From NCBI GenBank assembly GCA_963666865.1, contig OY763072.1, forward strand, positions 842,572 to 906,571: a stretch of DNA of 64,000 nt, in the 5' to 3' direction. The translations under genes and the position numbers were made by a program. Shown here piece after piece: positions 2,632 to 59,552 of the stretch. Numbering within the stretch: position 1 is the first letter of the stretch; every line of letters begins with the position of its first letter. The notes below the pieces were generated by a model. It did not search any database, was not told where the DNA came from, and saw only the letters and a list, made by a program, of their open reading frames with translations. This DNA is from Dehalococcoidia bacterium. GTDB lineage: Bacteria; Chloroflexota; Dehalococcoidia; Lucifugimonadales; UBA3495.

Positions 2632-2878
2632 CTAGTATTACAGTCGCGCTTAGTTTGATAGTATGAGCCCATGACTACTGGTGAGAGCGGAGGGGTTGGA
2701 GATGGGTCGGGCGTTGCTGGAGGGAGAGGCGGTCCTGAGGGAAGTGCTGGAGTGGGAAGTTGGGTTGCGGGCGCTGCACGAGCGTATCGGTCATCGTTTT
2801 AGTCGCAGTGAGTCGCGGCAGCGGGTTCTGTCGTACCTGCAAGGATTGCTGGGGTCGGTGGAGCGCAAGAACGGGTGG

Positions 2879-2893
2879 TCCGCCTGCGGCGGA
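2879..2893. repeat. TCCGCC-N3-GGCGGA palindrome (loop TGC) in IS701-like tnp
   Basis: tccgcctgcggcgga. Coincides with the switch from the 2681 frame to the 2875 frame. Confidence 0.9.
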
Positions 2894-2928
2894 CCGAGTA
2901 CGCTGGGGACGCCACCCCCGACGGGGTG

Positions 2929-2943
2929 TCCGCCGGAGGCGGA
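2929..2943. repeat. TCCGCC-N3-GGCGGA palindrome (loop GGA) in IS701-like tnp
   Basis: tccgccggaggcgga. In frame (SAGGG); the region is 2 aa longer than in the homologue at 55.6 kb. Confidence 0.9.
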
Positions 2944-3620
2944 CTGGCGGTGTACCACTGGGATGCGGATGAGGTGCGGGATGATCTGCAAGGGTACGTG
3001 GTGGAGCATCTGGGAGACCCAGAGGCGGTGCTGGTGGCGGATGAGACGGGGTTTCTGAAGCAGGGGAGGAAGTCGGTGGGGGTAAAGCGACAGTACAGCG
3101 GCACGGCGGGGAAGGTGGAGAACTGTCAGATCGGAGTGTTTTTGGCCTATGGCAGTTGTTACGGCGCCGCTTTTCTGGATCGGGAGTTGTATTTGCCCCA
3201 GGAATGGGCGGAGGATGTGGAGCGGCGGCAGGAAGCTGGGGTGCCGGAAGAGGTAATTTTCCATACCAAAGGGGAACTGGCCCAAACCATGATTGCCCGG
3301 GCGGTGTCGGCTGGGGTGCCCTTTGGCTGGGTGGCTGGCGATACGGTGTACGGCAACGACCGGCGACTGCGGCGGTGGCTGGCGGAGCAGAGCCTGCCCT
3401 ACGTGCTGGCGGTGAAGAGCAATGAGCCCCTGTGGGCCGACACGGAGCGTGGCTCGGCCCAGGTGGCGGCCCGGGAGTTGGCCCAGCAGATACCCGATGA
3501 CCAGTGGCAACGTCTCAGCGCTGGAGACGGGTCCAAAGGGCCACGCCTCTAAGATTGGGGCCGATTGCCGATCCGTCCCTGGTCAGAACCGGACCCGGGG
3601 CATTGGCTGTTGGTGCGTCG

Positions 3621-3635
3621 TCCGCCGCAGGCGGA
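3621..3635. repeat. TCCGCC-N3-GGCGGA palindrome (loop GCA) in IS701-like tnp
   Basis: tccgccgcaggcgga. Sits between HWLLVRR and TDPEDLAYY, which are in different frames. Confidence 0.9.
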
Positions 3636-3821
3636 CCGATCCCGAAGACCTGGCCTATTACGCCTGTTTTGGAGCGGCGGAAGTGCCGCTGGCCGAACTG
3701 GTGCGGGTGGCGGGCAGCCGCTGGATCATCGAAGATGCCTTCAAAGAAGCCAAGCAGGAAGTGGGTCTGGACGAATACGAGGTGCGCCGATGGGTGGGAT
3801 GGTACCGGCACATCACCCTGG

Positions 3822-3836
3822 TCCGCCTGAGGCGGA
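3822..3836. repeat. TCCGCC-N3-GGCGGA palindrome (loop TGA) in IS701-like tnp
   Basis: tccgcctgaggcgga. Sits between WYRHITL and [10 protein letters not shown], which are in different frames. Confidence 0.9.
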
Positions 3837-4102
3837 CTGGCCCATGCCTTTCTGGCAGCGACCCGGCGCTACGCCGTCGGTGGCCATGGCAAAAGGGGGC
3901 GGTCCCCCCGGGAGAACTCATCCCGTTGACCGTGTCCGAGGTCAGACTGCTGCTCTGCCGGCTGCTGTGGCTACCCCGAGGCAGTCCTGCCCTGACCATC
4001 CAATGGTCAGGATGGAGACGCCGGCATCAGGCCCGGGCTAGACAGTGTCATTACAAGAGACGCTTTCTGAGACTTTCACCACAAGCGCGACTGTAATATT
4101 AG

Positions 4103-6097: not shown

Positions 6098-6406
6098 ACC
6101 TTCGTATCTGTCTCCTTTTTGGAGGGGGTTCGGATGCCGGGGAGCACCAGGTGTCAGCCAGCGTTGCTCCCCATTTCTATTCCGTGCCGGACTTTTGCGT
6201 TTTGGGCTAGTCCAGCGACGTTTTCCGACACACGCGCGGATGGATTCGGATTTCCGGCGCATACCTGGAGCGGGCCGCCTCCGGGGCTGGCTCGTTGGGT
6301 GTGGAAGGCGGAAGCAAAGCCGTTGCCGGGGCCGCGGCGAACGCGGGCCGAGGGCAAGGCGCCGGGATGAAACGGTCAGCCAAGGCTGCTCCGTGGGACG
6401 CTTGGG

Positions 6407-7706
6407 ATGCGGCAGCCGGACGACCGCGACCGTGAGCTACAGATCCTGCGGAAACGCCTGTCCCGGCTCAGCGAGGCCAGCCGGCGGATCAACGAGAGCC
6501 TGGAGCTGGACACGGTGCTGCAGGAGGTGCTGGACAGCGCCCGCTCCCTGACCGGAGCCCGCTATGCCGTGATTACCACCCTGGACCCGGCCGGGCAGTT
6601 GGAGGACTTCCTGGCCTCCGGCCTGACTGCGGCGGAGGTTCGGGGCCTGTGGGAGATGCCCGAGGGGATCAGGTTCTTCGAGTACCTGAGCAACCTCCCG
6701 GGACCGCTGCGCGTCGGCGACTTTGCCGGCTACAGCCGGGCCATGGGCCTGCCCGAGTTCCGCCCGCCCGGCTCCCACGGGGGCTTCCTGATGGCCCCCA
6801 TCCGGCACCGGGGCGAGGGCGTCGGCAACATCTACCTGGCCAAGACCGAGCCCGGCGAGGAGTTCAGCCGGGAGGACGAGGAGACCCTGGTGATGTTCGC
6901 CGCCTCGGCGGCGCTGGTCATTGCTAACACCCGCCGGCACCGGGAGGAGCGGCGGGCCCGGGCCGACCTGGAGACCCTGGTCAATACTTCACCGGTGGGC
7001 GTGGTGGTCTTCGACGCCAGGGCCGGCGCGCCGTTGTACGTGAACCGGGGGCGCGGAGGATCCTGGGCGACCTGCGGACGCTGGACGGCGACCTGGAGCA
7101 GTTGTTGGAGGCGCTGACCTTCCAGCGGGCCGACGGGCGGGAGGTCTCTCCGGCAGAGTTCCCCTTGCCCAGGCCCTCAGCGCCGTCGAGACGGTACGGG
7201 CCGAGGAGATCGTCATCCAGGTGCCCGACGGCCGGTCGGTGACCACCCTCATCAACGCCACGCCCATCCACGCGGAGGATGGTAGTCTGGACAAGGTGGT
7301 GGTCACGTTGCAGGACCTGGCGCCCCTGGAGAATCTAGATCGGAGCGCCGTGCGCCGTCCACCGGCTGTGTCGCCGGCAGAGACTTTCATGCTGGGCGAC
7401 TTGACCTTGGATTACGCCCAGCGCGCGGTCAGCGTGGCCGGCCATCCGGTGCGTCTCACCCCCACGGAGTACGACCTGCTCTGCGAGCTGTCGGTCAACG
7501 CCGTGCGCGTGCTGACCTTCGACCACCTGGTGGCGCAGGTCTGGGGGCCGGAGCACTCCGGGGGCCGGGGGAGCGTGCGCACCTACGTGAAGCGGTTGCG
7601 CCGCAAGCTGGGGGAGGATGCCATCAGCCAGAAGTACATCTTCGCCGAACCCCGCGTCGGCTACCGCATGGGCCGGTCGGAAGCGTCGGGGGAGGCCGAG
7701 CAATAG
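6407..7706 (+). pseudogene. GAF-PAS-OmpR/PhoB winged-helix transcriptional regulator with two frameshifts
   Basis: GAF-like N-terminus (ORF 6407..7117); PAS-like middle section readable only after a shift near 7050 (ARRILGDLRTLDGDLEQLLEALTFQRADGREV) and a second near 7165; C-terminal trans_reg_C domain (LTPTEYDLLCEL...VRTYVKRLRRKLGEDA...VGYRM, ORF 7221..7706). Confidence 0.75.
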
Positions 7707-7931
7707 GCCGCCGGTTGCAACTTGGGTCGGCTGGCCCGGTGCGCGTCTGTCCACGCGTGAGCGAGCGCCAGTATGCGCGGTCCGCACAGTCGAAGTAGTT
7801 GTACTGCTTTCAGAGAGAGACACTACCGACAAATGCGGAGATTTCACGCCCAGCAGCGCGTGTGCTACAATGCGGTCACCGGGCGGGACGGCTGTGGTCC
7901 GCCCGACAACAAATGCCAGGGAGGTGCCACA

Positions 7932-8564
7932 ATGGCCGAATCCGATTTCACCGTTTATTACGACTTTCGTTGACCCTTCGTGTACAACGCTGCCATGTGG
8001 TGGGCGAAAGTACGCGAGAACACCGACCACGAAATCACCGTGGATCTGAAGCCGTTCTCGCTGGTTCAGGTAAATCACGACAACAACAATGACGACGGGT
8101 TCAAGTACTGGGAGCAGGACGACTCTGACAACACCCTGCTGGAACTCCGGGCCGGCATCGCCGCCCAGCGCCAGGGTGAGGAGATCTTCGACCGCTTCTT
8201 CATCAACCTGCTCAAGGCTCGCCACGAGGACCGCATTGACCTGACCGACGCCGATGCCATCAACGCGGTGGCCGAGGCCTCCGGCGTGGACATGGGCCAG
8301 TTCGCGGAAGACCTGGCCGACCCTGACGTCCTCCGGGAAATCGGCGAGAGTCACACCGAGGCTGTGGAAGTTCACGGCGCGTTCGGCGTCCCTCTGTACG
8401 TCTTCCCCAACGGCAACTCCGCCTTCGTCAAGATGTTCATTCCCTCCGACGACGAGTCCGGCGCCATCTATGACAACCTCGTCGAGATGATGGCCGACCA
8501 CAAGCACGTCGGTGAGGTCAAGCGGCCCTCCCCGCCGTGGCCCTACGAAGGTGTGCGCGGATAA
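7932..8564 (+). CDS. DsbA-like thioredoxin-fold oxidoreductase; candidate selenoprotein (in-frame TGA 7971..7973)
   Basis: GGGAGGTG lies 7 nt before ATG 7932. MAESDFTVYYDFR-TGA-PFVYNAAMWW..., same frame as ORF 7980..8564. The TGA falls at the Cys of the DsbA-type YxDxxCP(F/W) motif. GTG 7980 has no RBS. Confidence 0.6.
7977..8018 (+). promoter_or_regulatory. candidate SECIS-like hairpin downstream of TGA 7971
   Basis: Outer stem uucguguac/guacgcgag (9 bp including 2 GU); inner stem cgcugcc/ggugggcg with one bulged G; apical loop AUGU at +25..+28 from the U of UGA. Confidence 0.35.
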
Positions 8565-22665: not shown

Positions 22666-24528
22666 ATGAAGATCGCCGTCTGCGTTAAATTTGTCCCCGT
22701 AGTTTCGCGCATCGAGTTCGACTATGAGAACAAGGTGATACAACGGGAGGGTGTGCCGTCGGAGATTAATCCCTTCGACCTGTTGGGCATCAACATGGCG
22801 GTGGACCTGAAAGACGGCGATGCAGACTCAATAATCGCTTTGTCAATGGGTCCACCCAACGCCGCCGAGGGCCTCACGCAGTGCTACGCGCTGGGCGCCG
22901 ACCGGGCCTTGCTGCTGTCCGACCGGGCATTGGCCGGCAGCGACACGCTGGCGACGGCGCAGGCCCTGGCCCTGGCCCTGCAGCGTGAGGCTCCCGACCT
23001 CATCGTCTGCGGACGCAACAGCAGCGACGCCGAGACCGGCCAGGTGGGGCCGGAAGTCGCTGAGCTGATGGGACTGCCCCACATCAGCAACGTCCGCAAG
23101 CTGGAGGTGGACCGCTCCGCTAACCGCATCACGGTCGAGCGCGTGACCGACGAGGGCTATCAGGTGCTGGAATGCGGGCTGCCCGCAGTGGTGTGCGTCA
23201 CGGAAGGGGCCGGCCAGGAACGCTATCCGGGTCGGGAGGAAATGGCCGAGGCGGAGGGCAAAGCCATTGAGCAGTTGACCTGCGCTGATTTGACCGATCC
23301 GCCACAGGCGGACTTGTTCGGACTGGAAGGCTCGCCCACGTGGGTTGAGGACATCCGCCTGGTGGAACCCGACCGGCTGGGTGTGGTGATCCGGGACGAG
23401 ACGCCGGAGGACGCGGCACGGCAAGTCGCTGATATGCTCCGGGAACGGCTGGCCACGATAACCGCCGCAGGAGAGCAGGGTTCCGGCGACGCGGCGGCGG
23501 TGCGCTACGCCGGCGGGGACCGAAGCATCTGGGTGTTGGCGGAGTTGGCGGGTGGCGGCGTGCGGCAGGTTACGCTGGAAATGCTGGGCAAGGCCCGGGC
23601 GCTCGCTCCAATCACCCAGAGCGAGGTGGTAGCGGTTGTTATAGGCGAAGGTGCGCCGGATGAGGCCATCACCGGGCAATTGGCGGAGTACGGCGCCGAC
23701 CGCATCCTGACGCTGGATACCACCGGGCTGGGTATGCTCTGCGGTCGCGGCGTGGCGGACACGCTGTCCGATGCCATCGCGCAATCCGCCTCCGGCGGAC
23801 CCTACGCCGTGCTGTTCGCGGCCACCGCCGACGGGCGGGATCTCGCCGCCCGCATCGCCGCCCGGCAACGCCTTGGCCTCACTGGCGACGCCATCGACCT
23901 GGAGATCAACGACGCCGGCCAGTTGGTGCAGTTGAAACCGGCCCTGGGCGGCAACGTGGTTGCGCCCATTCTGTCCAAAACCCTGCCGAACCTGGTCACG
24001 CTGCGGCCGGGCGTGCTGACGCCGGCAGCGCCGGAACCGGGTGCGACGGCGCCCGTAGAAGCCATCGCTCCATCACCCGCCGCCGGCTCCGACGCAACAT
24101 TGGTCAGCGAGCATCTTTCCGAGGAACACGGCGCGCTGGAACTCACCTCCGCCGAGGTGGTGGTCGGCCTCGGTATGGGGGTGACGGAAGAGGGAGTGCC
24201 CGCCGCGCAGAAGTTGGCGTCAAGCATAGGCGCGTCCATCGCTACGACCCGCAACGTGGTGCATTCCGGCTGGCTGCCGCATCACATCCAGGTGGGCATC
24301 AGCGGGCGCACCATCGCGCCGCAGGTCTATCTGGCGGTGGGCATCCGGGGAGCGTTCAACCACACCGTCGGCATACAGAAAGCCGGCATTATCCTGGCCA
24401 TCAATCGCAACCACCGGGCGGCCATCTTCCGCGCCGCCGACTACGGGATAGTCGGCGACTGGAACGAATACCTGCCGCCGCTGGTTGAGGCCATCGGCCC
24501 GGTACTGGCGGAGCACGGGCTGGGATGA
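22666..24528 (+). CDS. fused electron-transfer flavoprotein, EtfB (N-terminal) plus EtfA (C-terminal), 620 aa
   Basis: N-terminal MKIAVCVKFVP...NPFD...GPEVAELMGLPH (beta subunit). C-terminal PQVYLAVGIRGAFNHTVGIQKAGIILAINRN (alpha subunit FAD site). Confidence 0.8.
   Translation: MKIAVCVKFVPVVSRIEFDYENKVIQREGVPSEINPFDLLGINMAVDLKDGDADSIIALSMGPPNAAEGLTQCYALGADRALLLSDRALAGSDTLATAQALALALQREAPDLIVCGRNSSDAETGQVGPEVAELMGLPHISNVRKLEVDRSANRITVERVTDEGYQVLECGLPAVVCVTEGAGQERYPGREEMAEAEGKAIEQLTCADLTDPPQADLFGLEGSPTWVEDIRLVEPDRLGVVIRDETPEDAARQVADMLRERLATITAAGEQGSGDAAAVRYAGGDRSIWVLAELAGGGVRQVTLEMLGKARALAPITQSEVVAVVIGEGAPDEAITGQLAEYGADRILTLDTTGLGMLCGRGVADTLSDAIAQSASGGPYAVLFAATADGRDLAARIAARQRLGLTGDAIDLEINDAGQLVQLKPALGGNVVAPILSKTLPNLVTLRPGVLTPAAPEPGATAPVEAIAPSPAAGSDATLVSEHLSEEHGALELTSAEVVVGLGMGVTEEGVPAAQKLASSIGASIATTRNVVHSGWLPHHIQVGISGRTIAPQVYLAVGIRGAFNHTVGIQKAGIILAINRNHRAAIFRAADYGIVGDWNEYLPPLVEAIGPVLAEHGLG
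23785..23799. repeat. TCCGCC-N3-GGCGGA palindrome (loop TCC), the only copy outside an IS
   Basis: tccgcctccggcgga, in frame (SASGG) inside etfBA. Confidence 0.8.
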
Positions 24529-37649: not shown

Positions 37650-39677
37650 ATGGCCGTATCCGCCAGTACCATTCGCAACGTCGCGCTGCTATCCCATAGC
37701 GGCGCGGGCAAGACCACCCTTGCCGAGACCATGCTGTTCAACGCCAAGGTGATTAACCGGATCGGCCGTGTTGAGGACGGCAACACCGTTTCCGACTACG
37801 AACCGGAGGAAGCCAAGCGTTCCGCCAGCGTGCAGACCAGTCTGCTGCGGTTCTCGGAGGGAGACAACAAGGTCAACCTGCTCGACACCCCGGGCTATGA
37901 CGAGTTCCTGGGCGAGGCCGTTGCCGCCGTCCGGGTGGTGGAATCGGCGATGATCCTGGTGGCCGCGCCCACCGGCGTTGACGTCGGCACCGAGCGCGCC
38001 TGGGACATGGCGCAGGAACGCGGATTGCCCATCGCCATCGTCCTCAACAAGATGGACCGGGAAAACGCGAGCTTTGAGCGCAACGTACAGGAACTGGTGA
38101 GCATCTTCGGCAACCGCTGTGTCCCCTTCCAGCTGCCCATCGGCGAAGCCCAGGATTTCACCGGCCTGGTGAGTGTCATCGACCCGCCGGCCGACATCCC
38201 TGCCGGGGTGGTGGGCGATTTTGATTCCGCCCGCGAGCGTCTCATTGAGGCGGTGGCAGAGTCCGACGACGCCCTGGCCGATAAGTACCTGGAAGGCGAG
38301 GAAATCACCGCCGCCGAGGTAACCGCCGGCGCCCGCGAAGCCATCCGCAACGGCGACCTGGTTCCCATCCTAGTGTCCTCGGCAACGCAGAACATTGGCG
38401 TCGAAGAACTGGTCCAAGTGATACACGATTTCCTGCCGTCGCCAGCCGACCTGCCGGCGACCTCCGGCGATGACGACATAACGGCCGACGCCTCCGGCCC
38501 CGCCGCCGCGCTGGTGTTCAAGACCACATCCGACCCCTTCGTGGGCAAACTGTCAATGTTCCGGGTCTATCGTGGTACGGCCCATTCCAACGGCGAGATC
38601 TATAACGTCAACAAGGGAGAGTCCGAGCGGTTGGGCCAGTTGTACCTGCCCCAGGGCAAGAACCAGGACAACGTGGCCGAGGTGGTCGCCGGTGACATCG
38701 GCGCTGTGGGCAAACTGAACGCCACCCTCACTGGGGACACGTTGGCCGCCAGCGACAATCGCGTTACGCTGACCGGCATTGACTTCCCCAAGGGCTTCTA
38801 CTCGCTGGCCGTGGTTCCGGCGACCCAGGCCGACCTGGACAAGATGAGCACCTCCCTGGCGCGCATCGTCGAGGACGACCCCAGCCTCCAGTTCACCCGC
38901 AACCCCGAAACCAGCGAGAGCCTGCTCACCGGCCTGGGCGAAGTGCAGATTGAAGTGGCCCTGGACCGCATCAAGCGCAAGTTCGGCGCCAGCCTCAACG
39001 TCAAGCTGCCCGTGGTCCCCTACCGCGAGACCATCACCCAGATCACCAACTCAGAATACCGGCACAAGAAGCAGACCGGCGGCAGCGGCCAGTACGGTCA
39101 CGTCCTGCTCCGGATCGAGCCGAAGACCCGCGACGAAGGCTTCGAGTTCGGCAACGAGGTGGTCGGCGGGCGCGTGCCCCGGGAGTTGATACCCGCGGTG
39201 GAAAAGGGCGTCGTCAACACGCTGAGAGAAGGCGTACTGGCCGGCTTCCCGGTGGTGGACCTGAAAGCCGTCATCTACGACGGCAGCACGCACCCGGTGG
39301 ACGGCAAACCCATCGCCTTCGAGATCGCCGGCAGCCAGGCCCTGCGTCAGGGTATGCAGAAGGCGTCGCCCGTGCTGCTGGAGCCCATCGTCCGGCTGTA
39401 CGTCACCGTCCCGGAGAACTACACCGGCGACATCATCAGCGACCTCAACGGCAAGCGGGGCCGCATCCTGGGCATGAACCCAGAAAACCGCTACACGGTA
39501 ATCGAGGCTGAGGTCCCCCAGGCCGAGGTGCAGCGCTACTCCCAGGACCTGCGCTCCATGACCGGCGGCCGCGGCTCCTACCGCTACGAGTTCGACCACT
39601 ACGAGCAGGTGCCGCAGAACATCGAGCAGCGCGTCATCGACACCGCCAAGCAGGCCAAGGAGGGGGCAACGGCTTAA
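37650..39677 (+). CDS. elongation factor G paralogue (EF-G2-like), 675 aa
   Basis: AHSGAGKTT-type G1 motif (LSHSGAGKTTL), DTPG, NKMD. Stand-alone, not in an rpsL-rpsG context. Confidence 0.85.
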   Translation: MAVSASTIRNVALLSHSGAGKTTLAETMLFNAKVINRIGRVEDGNTVSDYEPEEAKRSASVQTSLLRFSEGDNKVNLLDTPGYDEFLGEAVAAVRVVESAMILVAAPTGVDVGTERAWDMAQERGLPIAIVLNKMDRENASFERNVQELVSIFGNRCVPFQLPIGEAQDFTGLVSVIDPPADIPAGVVGDFDSARERLIEAVAESDDALADKYLEGEEITAAEVTAGAREAIRNGDLVPILVSSATQNIGVEELVQVIHDFLPSPADLPATSGDDDITADASGPAAALVFKTTSDPFVGKLSMFRVYRGTAHSNGEIYNVNKGESERLGQLYLPQGKNQDNVAEVVAGDIGAVGKLNATLTGDTLAASDNRVTLTGIDFPKGFYSLAVVPATQADLDKMSTSLARIVEDDPSLQFTRNPETSESLLTGLGEVQIEVALDRIKRKFGASLNVKLPVVPYRETITQITNSEYRHKKQTGGSGQYGHVLLRIEPKTRDEGFEFGNEVVGGRVPRELIPAVEKGVVNTLREGVLAGFPVVDLKAVIYDGSTHPVDGKPIAFEIAGSQALRQGMQKASPVLLEPIVRLYVTVPENYTGDIISDLNGKRGRILGMNPENRYTVIEAEVPQAEVQRYSQDLRSMTGGRGSYRYEFDHYEQVPQNIEQRVIDTAKQAKEGATA

Positions 39678-40048: not shown

Positions 40049-40086
40049 CGAGACTCTTACCTATTCGTAGGCAACGAAGTCGAAGT

Positions 40087-40248
40087 TCCCCAGGCTGAAG
40101 CGCGGTGCTACTCCTTGGGCGTGCGCTCCATGACCGGCGGCCGCGGCTCCTACCGCTACGAGTTCGACCACTACGAACAGGTCCCGCAAAAATCGAGCAG
40201 CGGGTGATCGACACCGTCAAGCAGGCCGAGGAGGGGGCGACGGCGTAA
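40087..40248 (+). pseudogene. displaced duplicate of the EF-G-like gene 3' end
   Basis: 40123..40248 aligns with 39551..39677: the first 54 nt are identical, then about 10 substitutions and a 1-nt deletion (cagaacatcgag versus caaaaatcgag). Weaker similarity continues back to about 40087. Confidence 0.8.
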
Positions 40249-43669: not shown

Positions 43670-43927
43670 ATGCCGTACCTGCTCGACAGCCTGGCAAGGA
43701 GCGCACGCGCGATGAGTTGGATCAGCAACGCCGTAAGGAGCGCACGCGCGATGCGTTGGGTTACCAACGCAATCTTTTTCGTCGGGGTGCCCGCCGGCAT
43801 TGTTGCAGGGCTTGACGTGGGCGGGCAATGGGACGTTCCCGAGTGGCTCCTTTACACGTGCGCCCTGGCCATCGCAGTAGTCCTGGTAGCCGGGATAGCA
43901 GTGGTCATTTTCGCCAAGGCGGACTAG
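43670..43927 (+). CDS. small membrane protein with a 33-nt tandem repeat
   Basis: ARSARAMSWISNAV / RSARAMRWVTNA repeat (about 43696..43761), then two hydrophobic helices. Confidence 0.35.
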   Translation: MPYLLDSLARSARAMSWISNAVRSARAMRWVTNAIFFVGVPAGIVAGLDVGGQWDVPEWLLYTCALAIAVVLVAGIAVVIFAKAD

Positions 43928-46797
43928 CTGACTCCCGCCGTATCAGGGCCCGGCCCCGCCCGCTCCAGGTTCAGCGCCAGCAGTCGTTCCAGTATCTCCC
44001 CGTCCGCCAAATCGGCCGGCCAGCCATACGCCTCGGCAACGGCGGCATCCAGGGCGGCGTGGGCGTTGCTCAGCCAGGTGGGACGCTGGTTGTAGAGATT
44101 GGTCAGCGTGCGGCGGCGTCCGCCGAGGCGGACTCCGCTGAGGTCCGTCGGATTCAGCCAGTTCTCCCGCAGGCGGTTCAGCTCAGCGGCGGCCGCGACG
44201 ATGGCCTCCCGCTGCTCGCCGGCGGGATGGGGGAAGGGGAAGGTTTCAAAGCACGTTGTTGGCGTGTAGCGCAGTCCGCTCGTCGCTTCACGCAGCTGAG
44301 TACCCATCGCCGTCGCCCAGAGAATGTGTATTCGGCTTTGCAACACTCCAAAGAAATAATCGTCATCACGAGCGAACACAATAATAGTAGCGTCAGGCAA
44401 TACCTCACCATCAATCCAACGAAACATCCGGTGTCTGGACACCATGCTGGTGCCAACGTAGCGTCCTAAACCGGCCAATGCCTGCCGCATACCGGGGCGA
44501 GCCTCGGCATGTATCCACCACAGTTGAGCGTAACGTTTTCTTCTGTTTTGAATCCTGTCGGGCTTTACATTCGCCGCAACATACTCAAAGGGTGCCTCGT
44601 ACAGAGCGGCATCGGACTCCGGCATATCTACGCCGAAGTCAATTATCCACATATGCCGGGAGCGCTGGTTAATGTCTCTGCCTATCATCCAACGCCTGAT
44701 GACATCACTGTTTGGCTTGCCGTGAGGATTGGGGGCACTCAACATCTCCTTCGCAACTTCGCCAGTTATTTCAAAAGGACCAACCTTCGTATCCCCCATG
44801 AAACTGATACTTGCATTTTCTTCCAGCCTCCGCGCCAGCGCCAAATCAGCCCCTGCCGTCAAGTCAACATTGATATTTGTAACCGCATGACCGTCCAGAT
44901 AGCGGTCAGTATCGCTCCCGTCGTCAAAACAGACGATGGAGACATGCACGGCGGCTCCCTCCAGCACCCAATCCTTATCTGACATGGCGGCAAAAATATC
45001 GCCGGTCTCTTTGATGCGAGCAAGCACCGGCCGGTTAGACTGGAACCGTATTGCTTGTGTCGCCAACAGGCCGGTCCGCTTGGTAGCGCCCGATGCAATC
45101 TGGCCCCGCGCTTTTTCGAACCAATAGCAGCACAGGTCGCTGTAGTTGGGAATGCGGTTGCCGTAAAGCGAGTACGCTGCACTTACGTAGTCATCGCCTA
45201 GCGACTCACGAAAAGGGAAATGGCCCAAAAACGGCGGGTTCCCCACGATAAACTCCGCCGCCGGCCATTCCGGTTCCGCGGGATGCTCCGGGTTAGACAG
45301 GTCAAGAATAGCGTCGGTCTGGCGGATGGTATCCAGCGGGGTCAGTATCGGGCGGTGGGTGTAGGGGAAGCCGTTGGCCTGGTGCCATTGGATGTAGCCA
45401 ATCCAGAGGGCGGTGCGGGTCAGTTCGGCGGCGTAGTGGTTGATTTCGAGGCCCAGCATCTGGTCGGGCTGCACCGTGGGCGTCAGGCCATGCCAGCCCT
45501 GGGCCGCGGCGAAGTCGATGACCTGTTTCTCCAAATCCAGCAGCGAGCGCAGGGCCAGGTAGAGGAAGTTGCCGCTGCCGCAGGCCGGGTCCAGCACGCG
45601 CACGCCGGCCAGCCGCTTCTGGAACTCCTCCAGCCGTTGCCGCGCCGGCGTATCGTCAGAAGCAGGATTCGCCGGATTGGTGGGATTGACCGGATTGGGG
45701 GGTTCTCCATCATTGAACGGCTCCAATCCTGATAATCCTTCAAATCCCGAAAATCCTGCTTCTGACAAAAGCTCCTCAATCTCCCGCCGGGCGGCGTCCC
45801 ACTCCCGGCGTAGCGGCTCCATCACTACCGGGTCAATGACCAGCATGATGTCGTCGGCGCCGGTGTAGTGGGCGCCCAGTTGGGAGCGTTTGGAGGCGTC
45901 CAGGGCTCGCTCGAACAGGGTGCCGAATATGGACGGCTCGATGTTGCGCCAGTTCTTCTGGGTGGCTTCGCCCAGCCGTTGCAGGGCGGTGGCGCTCAAT
46001 TCCACCGTGTCCCCGGATCCTTGACCAAATCCCTTGAACAGGTCCCCGTTGAAGTGGGGAATCTCGTCGGCCCCGAACAGGCCGCCGCCGGCCATTTGGG
46101 CAAAGAGGTCGGCCACGGCCTGATTGAACAAGTCCTGGCGGCGGAACAGTTGGCGCACGGTACGGGTGAACAGTCCCTCGGGCAGCAGTCCGGCGTCCTC
46201 GGCGTAGAGGCAGAAGACAATCTGGTTGAGGTAGCGGGCCAGCCGTTCCGGCCCCGTATCGGAGTACGGGGTGACGTTGTCTATGCGGGCCTCCATGTCG
46301 GCCACGATGTCGCGGAACAGGTCGGCGGTTTCCTGGGTAACCTGCTCCACCGTGCGGTTGGGGCGGAACTCGGCCGGCGCGAAAAAGGCGTTGCGCAGCT
46401 TGTCCAGATGTTCGGGCCGGTCCAGCTCAGCGACGGGGATCACGTGGAGGATGGTTTCCAAGCCCGGAAAGTTGGTGCGTATCCGGATGGTGTCGAAAGA
46501 CGACACGATGAGCAGGGGCGGCGTTTTCAGATAGACCTGGTAGCGTAGCAACTGGTTGATGGCTTCCGGCAGCTGCGCGTCGCTGCTTTTGAACTCCCAG
46601 CCGAACCGCTCCTCCAGGTAGGCGTCGGCAAAGCCGCCGGGCACCGCCTTCTCGAAGGTGAAAACCTCCGGGTTGCCGTAGGCCACCGGCGTGGGATGAC
46701 CCACCAGGGCGCAGATGTCCAGGAACATCTCCTGCGACGCCTGCTTCTCGCCGAAAGTGACTCCCTGCCACTTGGCGATGAACTGCTGGGGAGTCAT
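43924..46797 (-). CDS. MmeI-like type IIL restriction-modification enzyme (nuclease plus N6-adenine methyltransferase in one chain)
   Basis: N-terminal GFADAYLEERFGWEFKS (D...ExK as in the MmeI family), LDPACGSGNFL (motif I), GNPPF (motif IV), 957 aa. GGAG lies 9 nt before ATG 46797. Confidence 0.8.
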   Translation of the reverse strand: MTPQQFIAKWQGVTFGEKQASQEMFLDICALVGHPTPVAYGNPEVFTFEKAVPGGFADAYLEERFGWEFKSSDAQLPEAINQLLRYQVYLKTPPLLIVSSFDTIRIRTNFPGLETILHVIPVAELDRPEHLDKLRNAFFAPAEFRPNRTVEQVTQETADLFRDIVADMEARIDNVTPYSDTGPERLARYLNQIVFCLYAEDAGLLPEGLFTRTVRQLFRRQDLFNQAVADLFAQMAGGGLFGADEIPHFNGDLFKGFGQGSGDTVELSATALQRLGEATQKNWRNIEPSIFGTLFERALDASKRSQLGAHYTGADDIMLVIDPVVMEPLRREWDAARREIEELLSEAGFSGFEGLSGLEPFNDGEPPNPVNPTNPANPASDDTPARQRLEEFQKRLAGVRVLDPACGSGNFLYLALRSLLDLEKQVIDFAAAQGWHGLTPTVQPDQMLGLEINHYAAELTRTALWIGYIQWHQANGFPYTHRPILTPLDTIRQTDAILDLSNPEHPAEPEWPAAEFIVGNPPFLGHFPFRESLGDDYVSAAYSLYGNRIPNYSDLCCYWFEKARGQIASGATKRTGLLATQAIRFQSNRPVLARIKETGDIFAAMSDKDWVLEGAAVHVSIVCFDDGSDTDRYLDGHAVTNINVDLTAGADLALARRLEENASISFMGDTKVGPFEITGEVAKEMLSAPNPHGKPNSDVIRRWMIGRDINQRSRHMWIIDFGVDMPESDAALYEAPFEYVAANVKPDRIQNRRKRYAQLWWIHAEARPGMRQALAGLGRYVGTSMVSRHRMFRWIDGEVLPDATIIVFARDDDYFFGVLQSRIHILWATAMGTQLREATSGLRYTPTTCFETFPFPHPAGEQREAIVAAAAELNRLRENWLNPTDLSGVRLGGRRRTLTNLYNQRPTWLSNAHAALDAAVAEAYGWPADLADGEILERLLALNLERAGPGPDTAGVS

Positions 46798-46880
46798 AAC
46801 CACGCTCCATGTTGAATGATGCAAAGTCTGGGAGTTATGCTACCATTGACTGACGATTACTGCTGGACGGGTACTTAATT

Positions 46881-50101: not shown

Positions 50102-51290
50102 GCAGGGCTATCGCATATGAAAAATTGAGGTGTCAGGTAAGATAGCGTCCAAACTGCTGAGGTGGGGAGGACACCATGAGCGAGCTAGCGGACGTATTTG
50201 GCGATTTGGAAGACCCTCGGGCCGTCAATGCGCGTCTCCATTCCCTGCACGACATTCTGGTCATCGCTCTATGCACCATCGTCTGCGGCGGTCAGACTTG
50301 CACCGACATGGAGCTTTTCGGGCATTCCAAACGGGAGTTTCTGGAGTCCTTTCTGAATCTGGAAAACGGCATTCCCAGCCACGACACTTTCTCCCGGGTG
50401 CTGGGCAAACTGGATCCGGAAGCTTTCCAGCGGTGGTTTTTGAGGTTCATGGAACAGTTCGCTCAAGGGGTTCAGGGAGTGGTGGCCATGGACGGGAAGA
50501 CCTTGCGGCGTTCTTACGACCACGCGGCAGGACAGTCCGCCCTGCATCTGGTCAGCGCTTGGGCGGAAGAGCGGCGCCTGGTGTTGGGACAATTGGCCGT
50601 TGACGACAAGTCCAACGAGATTACGGCGTTGCCCAAGCTGTTGGAAATGTTGACCTTGCAAGGCAAGGTGGTTACCGTCGATGCCCTGAATTGTCAGCGT
50701 CAGATTGCTCAGCAAGTGATTGACCAGGAGGGCGACTACGCGCTAGCGTTGAAAGGCAATCAAGGTACGCTCTACGACGATGTAAAACTGTTTCTGGACG
50801 ACGCGGACACGCCGGCAGCTCAGGCCACCCAGGTCAGCAAGGGCCACGGACACATTGAAACCCGCACCGCCAGTATTAGCGACGACGTAGCCTGGCTGCA
50901 GGAATGGCACGACTGGCCGGGCTTGCAGGCCGTGGGTAAAGTAACAGCGGTCCGCCGTAAAGACGGCGACACCAGCGAGGAAACTCGTTATTACCTGCTG
51001 AGCCAGGCCTTCCCGCCGGAGCATTGCAACGACATCGTGCGCGGCCATTGGGGCATTGAGAACCGGCTGCATTGGGTATTGGACGTAACCTGCAACGAAG
51101 ACCAGGCGCGGAACCGGAAAGGGCATGGCGCGGAGAACCTGGCGTTGCTGCGTAAGTTGGCGCTGAATCTGGCGCGGTTGGAACCAAGCAAGGGGTCCAT
51201 GCGGGGCAAACTGAAACGGGCCGGTTGGGACAACTGCTTCCTCATCAACATCCTCTCCCAATTCACCAAAATCCATATGCGATAGCCCTG
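50102..51290 (+). mobile_element. ISAs1-family insertion sequence, apparently intact
   Basis: Perfect 17-bp inverted repeats cagggctatcgcatatg (50102..50118) and catatgcgatagccctg (51274..51290). Confidence 0.9.
50176..51285 (+). CDS. ISAs1-family (H-repeat-associated) transposase
   Basis: 369 aa uninterrupted; DPR...H.L.DIL, AMDGKTLRRS, DALNCQ and HWGIENRLHWVLDV motifs. Confidence 0.9.
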   Translation: MSELADVFGDLEDPRAVNARLHSLHDILVIALCTIVCGGQTCTDMELFGHSKREFLESFLNLENGIPSHDTFSRVLGKLDPEAFQRWFLRFMEQFAQGVQGVVAMDGKTLRRSYDHAAGQSALHLVSAWAEERRLVLGQLAVDDKSNEITALPKLLEMLTLQGKVVTVDALNCQRQIAQQVIDQEGDYALALKGNQGTLYDDVKLFLDDADTPAAQATQVSKGHGHIETRTASISDDVAWLQEWHDWPGLQAVGKVTAVRRKDGDTSEETRYYLLSQAFPPEHCNDIVRGHWGIENRLHWVLDVTCNEDQARNRKGHGAENLALLRKLALNLARLEPSKGSMRGKLKRAGWDNCFLINILSQFTKIHMR

Positions 51291-53207: not shown

Positions 53208-53222
53208 TCCGCCCATGGCGGA
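53208..53222. repeat. TCCGCC-N3-GGCGGA palindrome (loop CAT) in IS1182-like tnp
   Basis: tccgcccatggcgga, at frame switch 1. Confidence 0.9.
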
Positions 53223-53617: not shown

Positions 53618-53632
53618 CCCGCCTGAGGCGGA
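53618..53632. repeat. (C)CCGCC-N3-GGCGGA palindrome (loop TGA) in IS1182-like tnp
   Basis: cccgcctgaggcgga, at frame switch 2. Confidence 0.9.
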
Positions 53633-54105: not shown

Positions 54106-54120
54106 TCCGCCTCAGGCGGA
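54106..54120. repeat. TCCGCC-N3-GGCGGA palindrome (loop TCA) in IS1182-like tnp
   Basis: tccgcctcaggcgga, at frame switch 3. Confidence 0.9.
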
Positions 54121-54205: not shown

Positions 54206-54220
54206 TCCGCCGCAGGCGGA
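54206..54220. repeat. TCCGCC-N3-GGCGGA palindrome (loop GCA) in IS1182-like tnp
   Basis: tccgccgcaggcgga, in frame (VRRRR). Confidence 0.9.
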
Positions 54221-55940: not shown

Positions 55941-56755
55941 ATGGAAATTACGGAAGAACAGTACCAACGGATCGCGCCGCACTTCCCCGTACAGCGAGGC
56001 AACGTCAGCATCCCCAACTTGCAGGTGTTGAACGCTATCCTCTACGTCAATGAGCACGGTTGCAAATGGCGGGGTTTGCCTCCGTCCTTTGGTGACTGGC
56101 ACACCATCTATACTCGGATGAACCGCTGGTCCAAAAAGGGCGTGCTGGATCGGGTTTTCGCGGCCTTGCAGGAGGAGGGAATTGTCCGGGTCAATGTGGA
56201 GGTGACGGCCTTGGACAGCACCAGCGTGAAGAGCCTGCCCCGTACTGGATACGGGGTGCATCCGGACGGCGCTGGGGCGCTCAAAAAAGCGGGTTGCAAG
56301 CCATCGGCAAGTCCCGGGGCGGCTGGAACACCAAAATTCATCTGGTTGCCATCCGCCTGGGGCGGAAGCGCAATGCGGTGACCCCGTATCAGGTACGGGG
56401 CAGGCTCTTTGCGCTGTCGCCCGGGGAAGCTCATGACGGGCCGGAGGGCCGCCGCCTGTTGGAAAGTTTGGGGCCGCAAGAACCTGGGACCAAGTTGCTG
56501 ATGGATCGGGCCTATGAAGGCAACCCCACCCGCGGGTTGGCGGTGGAATTGGGGTATGACCCGGTAGTGCCGCCGTTGCGCAGTCGGAAAGAACCCTGGG
56601 AATATGATCGGGAGATGTACAAAAGGCGGAACGAAGTCGAGCGACTGTTCCGGCGGTTGAAAAGGTTCCGCCGCATCTTCAACCGATACGACAAGCTGGA
56701 TGCGATTTTCAGCGGCTTCATCCTGTTCGCCCTCATCTACGATGCCCTGCAATAG
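55941..56755 (+). CDS. IS5-family transposase OrfA/OrfB (two frames; a -1 shift is needed)
   Basis: OrfA ...NAILYVNEHGCKWRGLP...; OrfB QAIGKSRGGWNTKIH...MDRAYEG...RNEVERLFRRLKRFRRIFNRYDK. Contains three short palindromic extra segments, so activity is doubtful. Confidence 0.65.
56238..56256. repeat. CCCCGTA-N5-TACGGGG palindrome (loop CTGGA) in IS5-like orfA
   Basis: Lies within an in-frame extra 8-aa segment (SLPRTGYG) relative to the expected VKxH..AAGA. Confidence 0.8.
56283..56289 (+). promoter_or_regulatory. A6G slippery run at the orfA/orfB overlap (possible programmed -1 frameshift or transcriptional slippage)
   Basis: ctc aaa aaa gcg. A -1 shift gives ...LKK-SGLQAIGKSRGG. Confidence 0.45.
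56352..56366. repeat. TCCGCC-N3-GGCGGA palindrome (loop TGG) in IS5-like orfB
   Basis: tccgcctggggcgga. Part of an extra segment of about 11 aa between HLV and FALSPGEAHD. Confidence 0.9.
56382..56400. repeat. CCCCGTA-N5-TACGGGG palindrome (loop TCAGG) in IS5-like orfB
   Basis: ccccgtatcaggtacgggg, 15 nt after the previous palindrome. Confidence 0.85.
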
Positions 56756-57872: not shown

Positions 57873-57887
57873 TCCGCCTGAGGCGGA
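57873..57887. repeat. TCCGCC-N3-GGCGGA palindrome (copy of 54106..54120)
   Basis: tccgcctgaggcgga. Confidence 0.9.
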
Positions 57888-58354: not shown

Positions 58355-58369
58355 TCCGCCTCAGGCGGG
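58355..58369. repeat. TCCGCC-N3-GGCGG(G) palindrome (copy of 53618..53632)
   Basis: tccgcctcaggcggg. Confidence 0.9.
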
Positions 58370-58764: not shown

Positions 58765-58779
58765 TCCGCCATGGGCGGA
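58765..58779. repeat. TCCGCC-N3-GGCGGA palindrome (copy of 53208..53222)
   Basis: tccgccatgggcgga. Confidence 0.9.
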
Positions 58780-59304: not shown

Positions 59305-59319
59305 TCCGCCTCTGGCGGA
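59305..59319. repeat. TCCGCC-N3-GGCGGA palindrome (loop TCT) in IS5-like tnp
   Basis: tccgcctctggcgga, between DAH and PVRMILTAG (frame switch). Confidence 0.9.
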
Positions 59320-59537: not shown

Positions 59538-59552
59538 TCCGCCTTTGGCGGA
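59538..59552. repeat. TCCGCC-N3-GGCGGA palindrome (loop TTT) in IS5-like tnp
   Basis: tccgcctttggcgga, in frame on the coding strand (PPKAE) inside DYG-PPKAE-KNTHRRY. Confidence 0.9.

Follow-up and report, generated by a model that had tools for sequence, protein, structure and literature searches.

Fifteen-nucleotide hairpins replace short dyad-symmetric sites in insertion sequences and other DNA of a Dehalococcoidia lineage

An IS701-like element in the genome of a Dehalococcoidia bacterium is interrupted by several copies of one short palindrome, which raises the question of what this palindrome is, how it came to lie there and whether it belongs to the element at all. The whole stretch of DNA that we analysed, called the window here, is 64 kb long with a G+C content of 62%. 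It contains 14 exact copies of TCCGCCNNNGGCGGA (TCCGCC-N3-GGCGGA), against an expected 0.04 in dinucleotide-preserving shuffles (maximum 1), in agreement with the preliminary description of this DNA, which had put the expectation far below one per 64 kb. The spacing between the arms is always 3 nt: other loops of 0-11 nt give no match in the window apart from a 2-nt case at 44119, the inverted order GGCGGA..TCCGCC is absent from it, and none of the other 6-bp stems with a 3-nt loop occurs in it more than twice. There is a single one-mismatch copy, at 53618..53632. In the window and in related loci the 12 stem bases are perfectly kept and the loop is free, with a skew toward GCA (6), AAA (6), GGA (5) and TCA (3), together 20 of 29 events in a hand tally with duplicates collapsed; this skew fits copying from a master copy or a structural constraint. 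The unit spans 15-17 nt, usually with a purine on one flank and a pyrimidine on the other, and as single-stranded DNA it is predicted to fold with a dG of -6.1 to -7.3 kcal/mol. Rfam reports no known RNA family at any of the hairpins, and full-text literature searches returned no description of the motif or the phenomenon. A scan of metagenome contigs for GTCCGCC-N3-GGCGGAC gave 120 matches, mostly single and unrelated, with the core embedded in long terminator-like palindromes in a few low-GC contigs. We also considered TCTCCC-N3-GGGAGA, enriched in three other genomes, as an analogous intragenic cassette and rejected it, as it forms the central part of an intergenic, REP-like repeat of greater length (CCCTCTCCC..GGGAGAGGGTTAGGGTGAGGGC).

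Four copies lie in the IS701-like element, relatives of which encode an intact transposase of 407-410 aa. Its features are given below; here and later, hairpins are listed without a strand.

2632..4102, plus strand: IS701-like element with terminal inverted repeats CTAGTATTACAGTCGCGCTT / AAGCGCGACTGTAATATTAG; transposase pseudogene
2879..2893: hairpin, loop TGC; about 7 nt (CAGTTGG) displaced, net +8, frameshift
2929..2943: hairpin, loop GGA; CAGCGGTTG displaced, net +6, in frame
3550..3552, plus strand: TAA nonsense codon, TAC in relatives; the sole non-hairpin lesion of this copy
3621..3635: hairpin, loop GCA; CAGCATCG displaced, net +7, frameshift
3822..3836: hairpin, loop TGA; CGCTG displaced, net +10, frameshift

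This copy thus carries three frameshifting hairpins, one in-frame hairpin and one nonsense codon. An additional frameshift near 3890, without a hairpin, was considered and rejected because the intact relatives share the same stop codon. When the element is aligned with nine related copies from other Dehalococcoidia MAGs, each of the four hairpin sites is in the empty state in eight or nine of them. The IS701 copy of one related locus (L012) has its own, independent hairpin at the site equivalent to 2929 (L012 10223, loop CCA, net +9); the two events have a common right boundary and different left boundaries, both obey the target rule set out below, and the L012 ORF is intact despite its in-frame hairpin. 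The second IS701-like copy of the window (54.95-55.9 kb, minus strand) has a 14-residue reading at the matching site, without a hairpin.

The preliminary description had reported four copies with these positions and loops, three of them at frame changes, a second IS701-like copy without hairpins, and insert lengths that differ modulo 3 and so have no fixed value. Positions and loops match ours, the frame changes are real at 2879, 3621 and 3822 (the hairpin at 2929 being in frame), the second copy holds no hairpin, and the alignment with the nine relatives gives +8, +6, +7 and +10. It had also named conservation of the motif as IS701 coding sequence as evidence against its reading; the related copies are empty. 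Judged from these alignments, the view that the hairpins do not belong to the IS701 coding sequence and caused its frame changes is supported. Hairpins that sit exactly at frame changes, as three of the four IS701 hairpins do, could also be recoding signals (programmed frameshift or translational bypass) that allow the interrupted transposases still to be made, and they do recall the GC clusters or 'byp' elements of yeast mitochondria. The latter are organellar, 27-55 nt long and tolerated by translational bypass; they share with the Dehalococcoidia hairpins the invasion of coding sequence by small GC-rich hairpins, but there is no evidence of bypass for the latter. A recoding element would leave the gene otherwise intact and shift it consistently, whereas here the shifts are +8, +7 and +10, with mixed directions modulo 3, half of the insertions preserve the reading frame, take-off and landing codons that match are not seen, and the same gene has the TAA codon at 3550. 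Because of this extra nonsense codon and the mixed shifts, we exclude recoding as hardly credible.

The remaining window copies comprise two in a gene for an electron transfer flavoprotein (ETF) and eight in IS1182-like, IS5-like and IS701-like fragments of an IS nest at 53.1-59.8 kb. A 973-nt inverted duplication with 100% identical arms accounts for two of the eight.

53208..53222: hairpin, IS1182-like transposase; net +8; identical copy at 58765-58779 in the inverted duplicate
53618..53632: one-mismatch copy CCCGCCTGAGGCGGA; duplicate at 58355-58369
54106..54120: hairpin, IS1182-like transposase; net +8; duplicate at 57873-57887
54206..54220: hairpin, IS1182-like transposase; in frame, net about +9
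56352..56366: hairpin, IS5-like transposase (DUF4096/DDE_Tnp_1); adjoins a hairpin of a second family at 56383
57873..57887: hairpin, truncated inverted IS1182-like copy; duplicate of 54106
58765..58779: hairpin, inverted duplicate (973-nt arms); duplicate of 53208
59305..59319: hairpin, second IS5-like transposase (minus strand); CATACCG displaced, net +8
59538..59552: hairpin, the same second IS5-like copy; CAGTCC displaced, net +9

The second hairpin family, (GT)CAC-CCCGTATCAAGTACGGG-GCAGGCTCT (or with a GTGACGTT tail), is found in the window at 56383-56399, 56239-56255 and 46253-46270. It is widespread in Dehalococcoidia loci (L003 at 6264 and 8412, L014 at 1481, L075 at 11542, L033 and L048), behaves like a true insertion of 24-26 nt, and has copies in intergenic DNA and transposase genes as well as an in-frame one in an MmeI-like gene. 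Twice a member of this family is found no more than 20 nt from a TCCGCC hairpin.

The two copies outside insertion sequences lie in an intact fused gene, and here the order of gain can be followed.

22666..24528, plus strand: fused ETF beta-alpha gene (Pfam), intact, 620 aa, with two in-frame hairpins
23298..23312: hairpin, loop ACA; DLS changed to PPQAD, net +6; filled in L002 and L003, empty in L001 and about 115 other homologues
23785..23799: hairpin, loop TCC; CAGCCT displaced (QP changed to SASGG), net +9; filled only in the window and L003

The related loci compared all come from Dehalococcoidia bacterium MAG records, and the close ETF homologues are from Chloroflexota, in which the beta-alpha fusion (615-625 aa) is conserved in more than 100 homologues. 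Two proteins of the window were also looked up by exact sequence, which gave no match. At 94% amino acid identity, L001 has both sites empty; L002 has only the first filled and the site at 23785 empty; L003 and the window have both filled. The length of the protein rises along this series from 615 to 617 to 620 aa, and both sites are empty in the roughly 115 more distant homologues. Where L002 and the window share an orthologous hairpin the loop differs and the stems are perfect. A 5-residue ETF insert found in other lineages ('RNSDGIL') was examined as a hairpin family with another stem and rejected, its DNA (CGTAACTCTGATGGAATCTTG) not being palindromic. Because the related IS701 copies are empty and the ETF series passes from empty through one-filled to two-filled, these sequence comparisons establish the hairpins as derived, recent and sequentially gained.

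We then asked where else the hairpin occurs. In 1.7 Mb of related DNA there are 37 perfect copies, mostly in the window and in loci L012 (7 in 21 kb), L014 (7 in 11 kb) and L201. High density is limited to the window lineage, to OY762251.1 (which holds L012 and L201) and to JAGWBI01 (L014), with sporadic copies in four other genomes; genome bab385ab has no hairpin in about 490 kb that include more than 20 IS701 copies. The same insertions recur in assemblies of different samples, with contig names typical of different assemblers, and the hairpins are therefore not artefacts. Insertion sequences make up 15% of the window and hold 12 of its 14 copies, or 10 of 12 independent events (binomial P = 2.5e-7 against a uniform spread); a uniform distribution of the motif, which the preliminary description had named as counter-evidence, is thus not what we find. 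The transposase genes with copies belong to at least five IS families, and those of L012, L014, L017, L006 and L027 are of IS630, IS4-like, IS701 and ISAs1 types. Two diverged IS630-like copies in L012 have one hairpin in common and differ in four others, and L014 has four hairpins within 240 nt. An IS4-like element has one hairpin with the same loop at the same site in three genomes, from which we conclude that active IS elements carry in-frame copies along with them; half of the events in IS DNA keep the frame. Eukaryote-like proteins (fibronectin type III, TPR, serpin) are encoded beside the IS nests of L012 (82-618 and 19568-21247) and L014 (3335-4489).

Such a focus on insertion sequences could reflect a host defence that recognises IS elements or transposition intermediates and disables their transposase genes with a hairpin, as a bacterial analogue of repeat-induced mutation. 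The enrichment just given, the striking of at least five unrelated IS families, the four hairpins among the five lesions of the IS701 copy and the absence of copies from ordinary intergenic DNA of the window all speak for it. However, two hairpins lie in a single-copy housekeeping gene (ETF), and in L201, a housekeeping region of OY762251.1, one arm of an intergenic MITE-like palindrome some 150 nt long holds three perfect copies and a decayed one. Conversely, the second IS701 fragment and an intact ISAs1-type transposase at 50176-51285 (DDE_Tnp_1_assoc and DDE_Tnp_1), presumably young or active, are without hairpins, half of the IS events are harmless to the frame, and the hairpin of the L012 IS701 copy leaves its ORF intact. 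A rough rate taken from the L012 IS630 pair suggests that an unbiased process with purifying selection could give about two tolerated events per 56 kb of genes. We consider defence rather improbable. Because copies lie in the ETF gene and in the L201 MITE-like repeat, IS pseudogenes can be read as a sink of tolerated DNA and not as a target, and the apparent IS focus is probably such a sink effect. The preliminary description had said that the hairpins 'litter' an IS701-like transposase; their enrichment in IS DNA holds, and the targeting that the word suggests is not supported. One observation counts against a neutral sink, which predicts a few copies in ordinary intergenic DNA: the window has none. 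As for L201 itself, its intergenic stretch at 6400-8460 is packed with repeats, among them tandem units of 37 nt and 23 nt (TGTCATTGCGAGCGCAGCGCGGCAAT...) and palindromes some 150 nt long, and lies upstream of an NAPRTase gene where relatives encode a UDP-glucose dehydrogenase, none being called in L201.

To define the event itself we paired 24 hairpins with a related empty site (the related loci offered none for the hairpin at 56352), and all counts of geometry and signature rest on these pairs. In every one the 15-mer displaces native sequence, 5-14 nt long, with 6 nt in eight pairs (the mode) and 7 nt in four, and none of the 24 shows a target duplication. The commonest net length change is +9, with +8, +10, +7, +6, +4, +3 and +1 also present; part of the 5-14 nt spread may come from divergence between filled and empty copies. 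The displaced segment starts with C(A/G) in 20 of 24 pairs, preceded by a purine at -1 in 23, and ends with (T/C)G in 14, followed by a pyrimidine at +1 in 21. The boundaries therefore form a two-fold symmetric signature, R^C(A/G)...(T/C)G^Y, in which the left half-site has a P of about 1e-15 against a background RCR frequency of 0.097, and the right half-site, complete in 11 of 24 by hand recount, an estimated (not computed) P of roughly 1e-5. The variable length of the 'insertion' in the preliminary description thus stands, whereas pure insertion gives way to replacement, and its proposed xAT or xAC left flank to a purine before the hairpin and the signature above.

Template switching during replication or repair could in principle make such changes with no dedicated enzyme, if quasi-palindrome correction, templated by an ectopic hairpin copy, converted short native dyads into the perfect motif. 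Consistent with this, the events are complex, combining substitutions with an indel, the native L014 sites TCGGTTACCGA, CACCGCCGTGGGCG and CGCCCAAGGACG are already mini-palindromic or motif-like, and by our own count some two thirds of the sites have a complementary pair (C...G) as first and last displaced base. Overall, though, similarity to the motif is no greater in native sites than in random sequence (P = 0.21), a result on which we also rejected targeting of motif-like pseudo-sites. Classical correction copies a local arm and so cannot produce 12 identical stem bases across more than 25 sites that are unrelated, and the confinement to a few lineages argues for a specific factor and against template switching, to which we assign a low probability.

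The hairpins could also be excision footprints of a larger cut-and-paste transposon with TCCGCC.../...GGCGGA termini. Footprints of the Tc1/mariner type are short palindromes derived from both ends with a variable centre, and so are similar in form, and in-frame ones would be selected in a useful gene such as ETF. Known footprints, however, keep an added target duplication together with the terminal bases of the transposon, whereas native bases are lost here. The loop is always exactly 3 nt, and the four L014 events in 240 nt would need four separate cycles of insertion and excision. The hairpin-rich loci also contain no longer element with such termini: all pairs of TCCGCC...GGCGGA with arms of at least 14 nt prove to be two hairpins, except for a weak pair with two mismatches in L003 (205/1322), which seems fortuitous and overlaps a housekeeping gene. 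We therefore regard footprints as very unlikely.

That the 12 stem bases are perfect, the loop is free and the window has only one decayed copy would also suit a functional site under selection, either for binding of a dimeric protein or as back-to-back Type IIG restriction-modification sites. The hairpin arm GGCGGA is the recognition sequence of EciI, and an intact gene at 43924-46824 of the window (minus strand) codes for a Type IIG restriction-modification protein of the MmeI family, 966 aa long. Selection nonetheless fails to explain the origin of 15-nt events or their build-up in dead transposase genes, single half-sites are common and unavoided (67 TCCGCC and 95 GGCGGA in the window), and youth explains perfect stems equally well; a selected site seems to us quite improbable. 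The MmeI-like gene itself holds the TCCGCC-NN-GGCGGA at 44119, a CCCGTA hairpin at 46253 and a 112-nt palindromic element (45655-45766), and its ORF remains open. This last element is a MITE-like palindrome with arms rich in GGATT/AATCC (GTCAGAAGCAGGATT...AATCCTGCTTCTGAC) that recurs in L201 (6802-6885 and 8309-8422); it is inside the MmeI-like ORF in the window and intergenic in the relative. Elsewhere in the window, a 117-nt direct repeat with 85% identity (39503-39619 and 40075-40191) flanks the end of an EF-G-like gene region.

What the comparisons establish is an ongoing process, specific in sequence and restricted to a few lineages, that replaces a dyad-symmetric target without duplicating it. 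The reading that we prefer, with a probability of about 0.5, is that the hairpin is an ultra-short cassette, mobilised in trans or written by an enzyme, that takes the place of a short dyad-symmetric target and is retained at sites that tolerate it. A sequence-specific activity acting in trans would currently be writing TCCGCC-NNN-GGCGGA into one Dehalococcoidia lineage, cutting the target at the two symmetry-related positions R^C(A/G)...(T/C)G^Y, with 6 bp as their commonest spacing, removing the bases between the cuts and putting in the 15-mer. The absence of a target-site duplication and the modal net change of +9 follow from such an exchange of the intervening bases for the 15-mer. We infer that the reaction may take place at the foot of small single-stranded DNA hairpins, where a weak native mini-palindrome would be exchanged for the strong cassette, by analogy with the action of HUH/Y1 enzymes on REP sequences and IS200/IS605 ends; the data would be matched just as well by a symmetric dimer working on double-stranded DNA. 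Existing genomic copies or a dedicated template could provide the cassette. Copies would then persist in dead or dispensable transposase genes, in intergenic MITE-like repeats and, rarely, at in-frame housekeeping sites, and in-frame copies within intact IS elements would be multiplied by transposition. Two features sit uneasily with the cassette, namely a displacement range of 5-14 nt, which is loose for a precise recombinase, and the lack of a conserved flanking tetranucleotide of the REP/RAYT kind. The search for the enzyme covered about 0.2 Mb of hairpin-rich DNA, less than 5% of such a genome, and no candidate emerged: neither the scanned ORFs of the window, L012 and L014 nor the precomputed Pfam matches of L001, L003, L200 and L201 include a Y1/HUH transposase (PF01797) or a reverse transcriptase. 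A bolder version of the cassette reading, which we hold as unlikely though less so than the alternatives above, is a new Dehalococcoidia enzyme system performing a 'cut two symmetric sites and replace' edit, in which about 6 bp are swapped for a fixed 15-nt palindrome that could come from one template or oligonucleotide used on both strands. The hairpin would then be the smallest mobile or written DNA unit known, and its transposition would follow a new chemistry in which the target is a dyad, the target site is deleted and the encoded ends do not exceed 6 bp; the host might use or tolerate the system to inactivate IS elements.

How does this hairpin compare with known small repeats? The small dispersed repeats (SDRs) of Nostocaceae are reportedly hairpin-forming and apparently mobile, lying in IS elements, MITEs and genes, and are said to have been recognised by comparing interrupted with uninterrupted paralogues, with at least one family entering a short palindrome (HIP1). 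SDRs are not known to encode a protein. SDR4-6 are reported to be cyanobacterial repeats of 21-27 nt (Elhai et al. 2008, as cited in PMC3116915 and PMC5861425). A hairpin of under 30 nt that is present or absent among similar paralogues or orthologues marks the group, and the Dehalococcoidia hairpin is likewise present or absent in this way; the SDRs differ from it in their 21-27 nt, as against 15-17 nt with a free 3-nt loop and about 6 nt replaced at an R^CR...YG^Y dyad. REP/REPIN sequences, mobilised by RAYT (Y1 HUH) proteins, are 20-40 nt long, extragenic, tagged with GTAG/CGTC, often arranged as inverted doublets and near a RAYT gene (PMC3116915, PMC3733652). They resemble the Dehalococcoidia hairpins in being short, GC-rich and lineage-specific, with a conserved stem, a variable loop and presumed mobilisation in trans via single-stranded DNA. 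None of the 37 copies has a GTAG or CGTC tag, however, the flanks showing only R at -1 and Y at +1, and whereas REPs are mostly extragenic and form inverted doublets, nearly all copies here are inside ORFs with no regular doublet spacing.

Larger elements offer looser parallels. Rickettsia palindromic elements are said to be ancient, 100-150 bp long and in frame in protein-coding genes. The hairpins share with them the character of a palindromic selfish repeat that can lie in frame in genes, including housekeeping genes, without destroying them, but are 15 bp, recent and mostly frame-breaking. MITEs are likewise non-autonomous, end in terminal inverted repeats and nest in other repeats; they exceed 50 bp and have target-site duplications, whereas here native bases are deleted and only 6-bp arms conserved, and the hairpin-rich loci hold no longer TCCGCC/GGCGGA-ended element that could be a parent IS with shared termini. 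The closest described repeats are the Nostoc SDRs and REP/REPIN sequences, and like them the Dehalococcoidia hairpin is a tiny repeat that spreads and codes for nothing; it is shorter than any of these and lacks the features that define REPs (tag, extragenic location, doublets) and MITEs (target duplication, parent IS). It may be among the smallest mobile-like DNA repeats seen in bacteria, and the chemistry behind it has a real chance of being new.

If the hairpin is mobile, the size limit for a mobilisable DNA unit falls to about 15 nt, with an insertion geometry, the replacement of a short dyad without duplication, that standard transposition mechanisms do not predict. In uncultured Chloroflexota the hairpins create frameshifts or in-frame inserts of 2-3 residues (+6/+9 nt) in genes, lesions that can be mistaken for assembly errors or ordinary pseudogenisation. 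The empty, one-filled and two-filled alleles across genomes that are 94-98% identical provide a natural time course, which comparative genomics could use in a search for the responsible gene.
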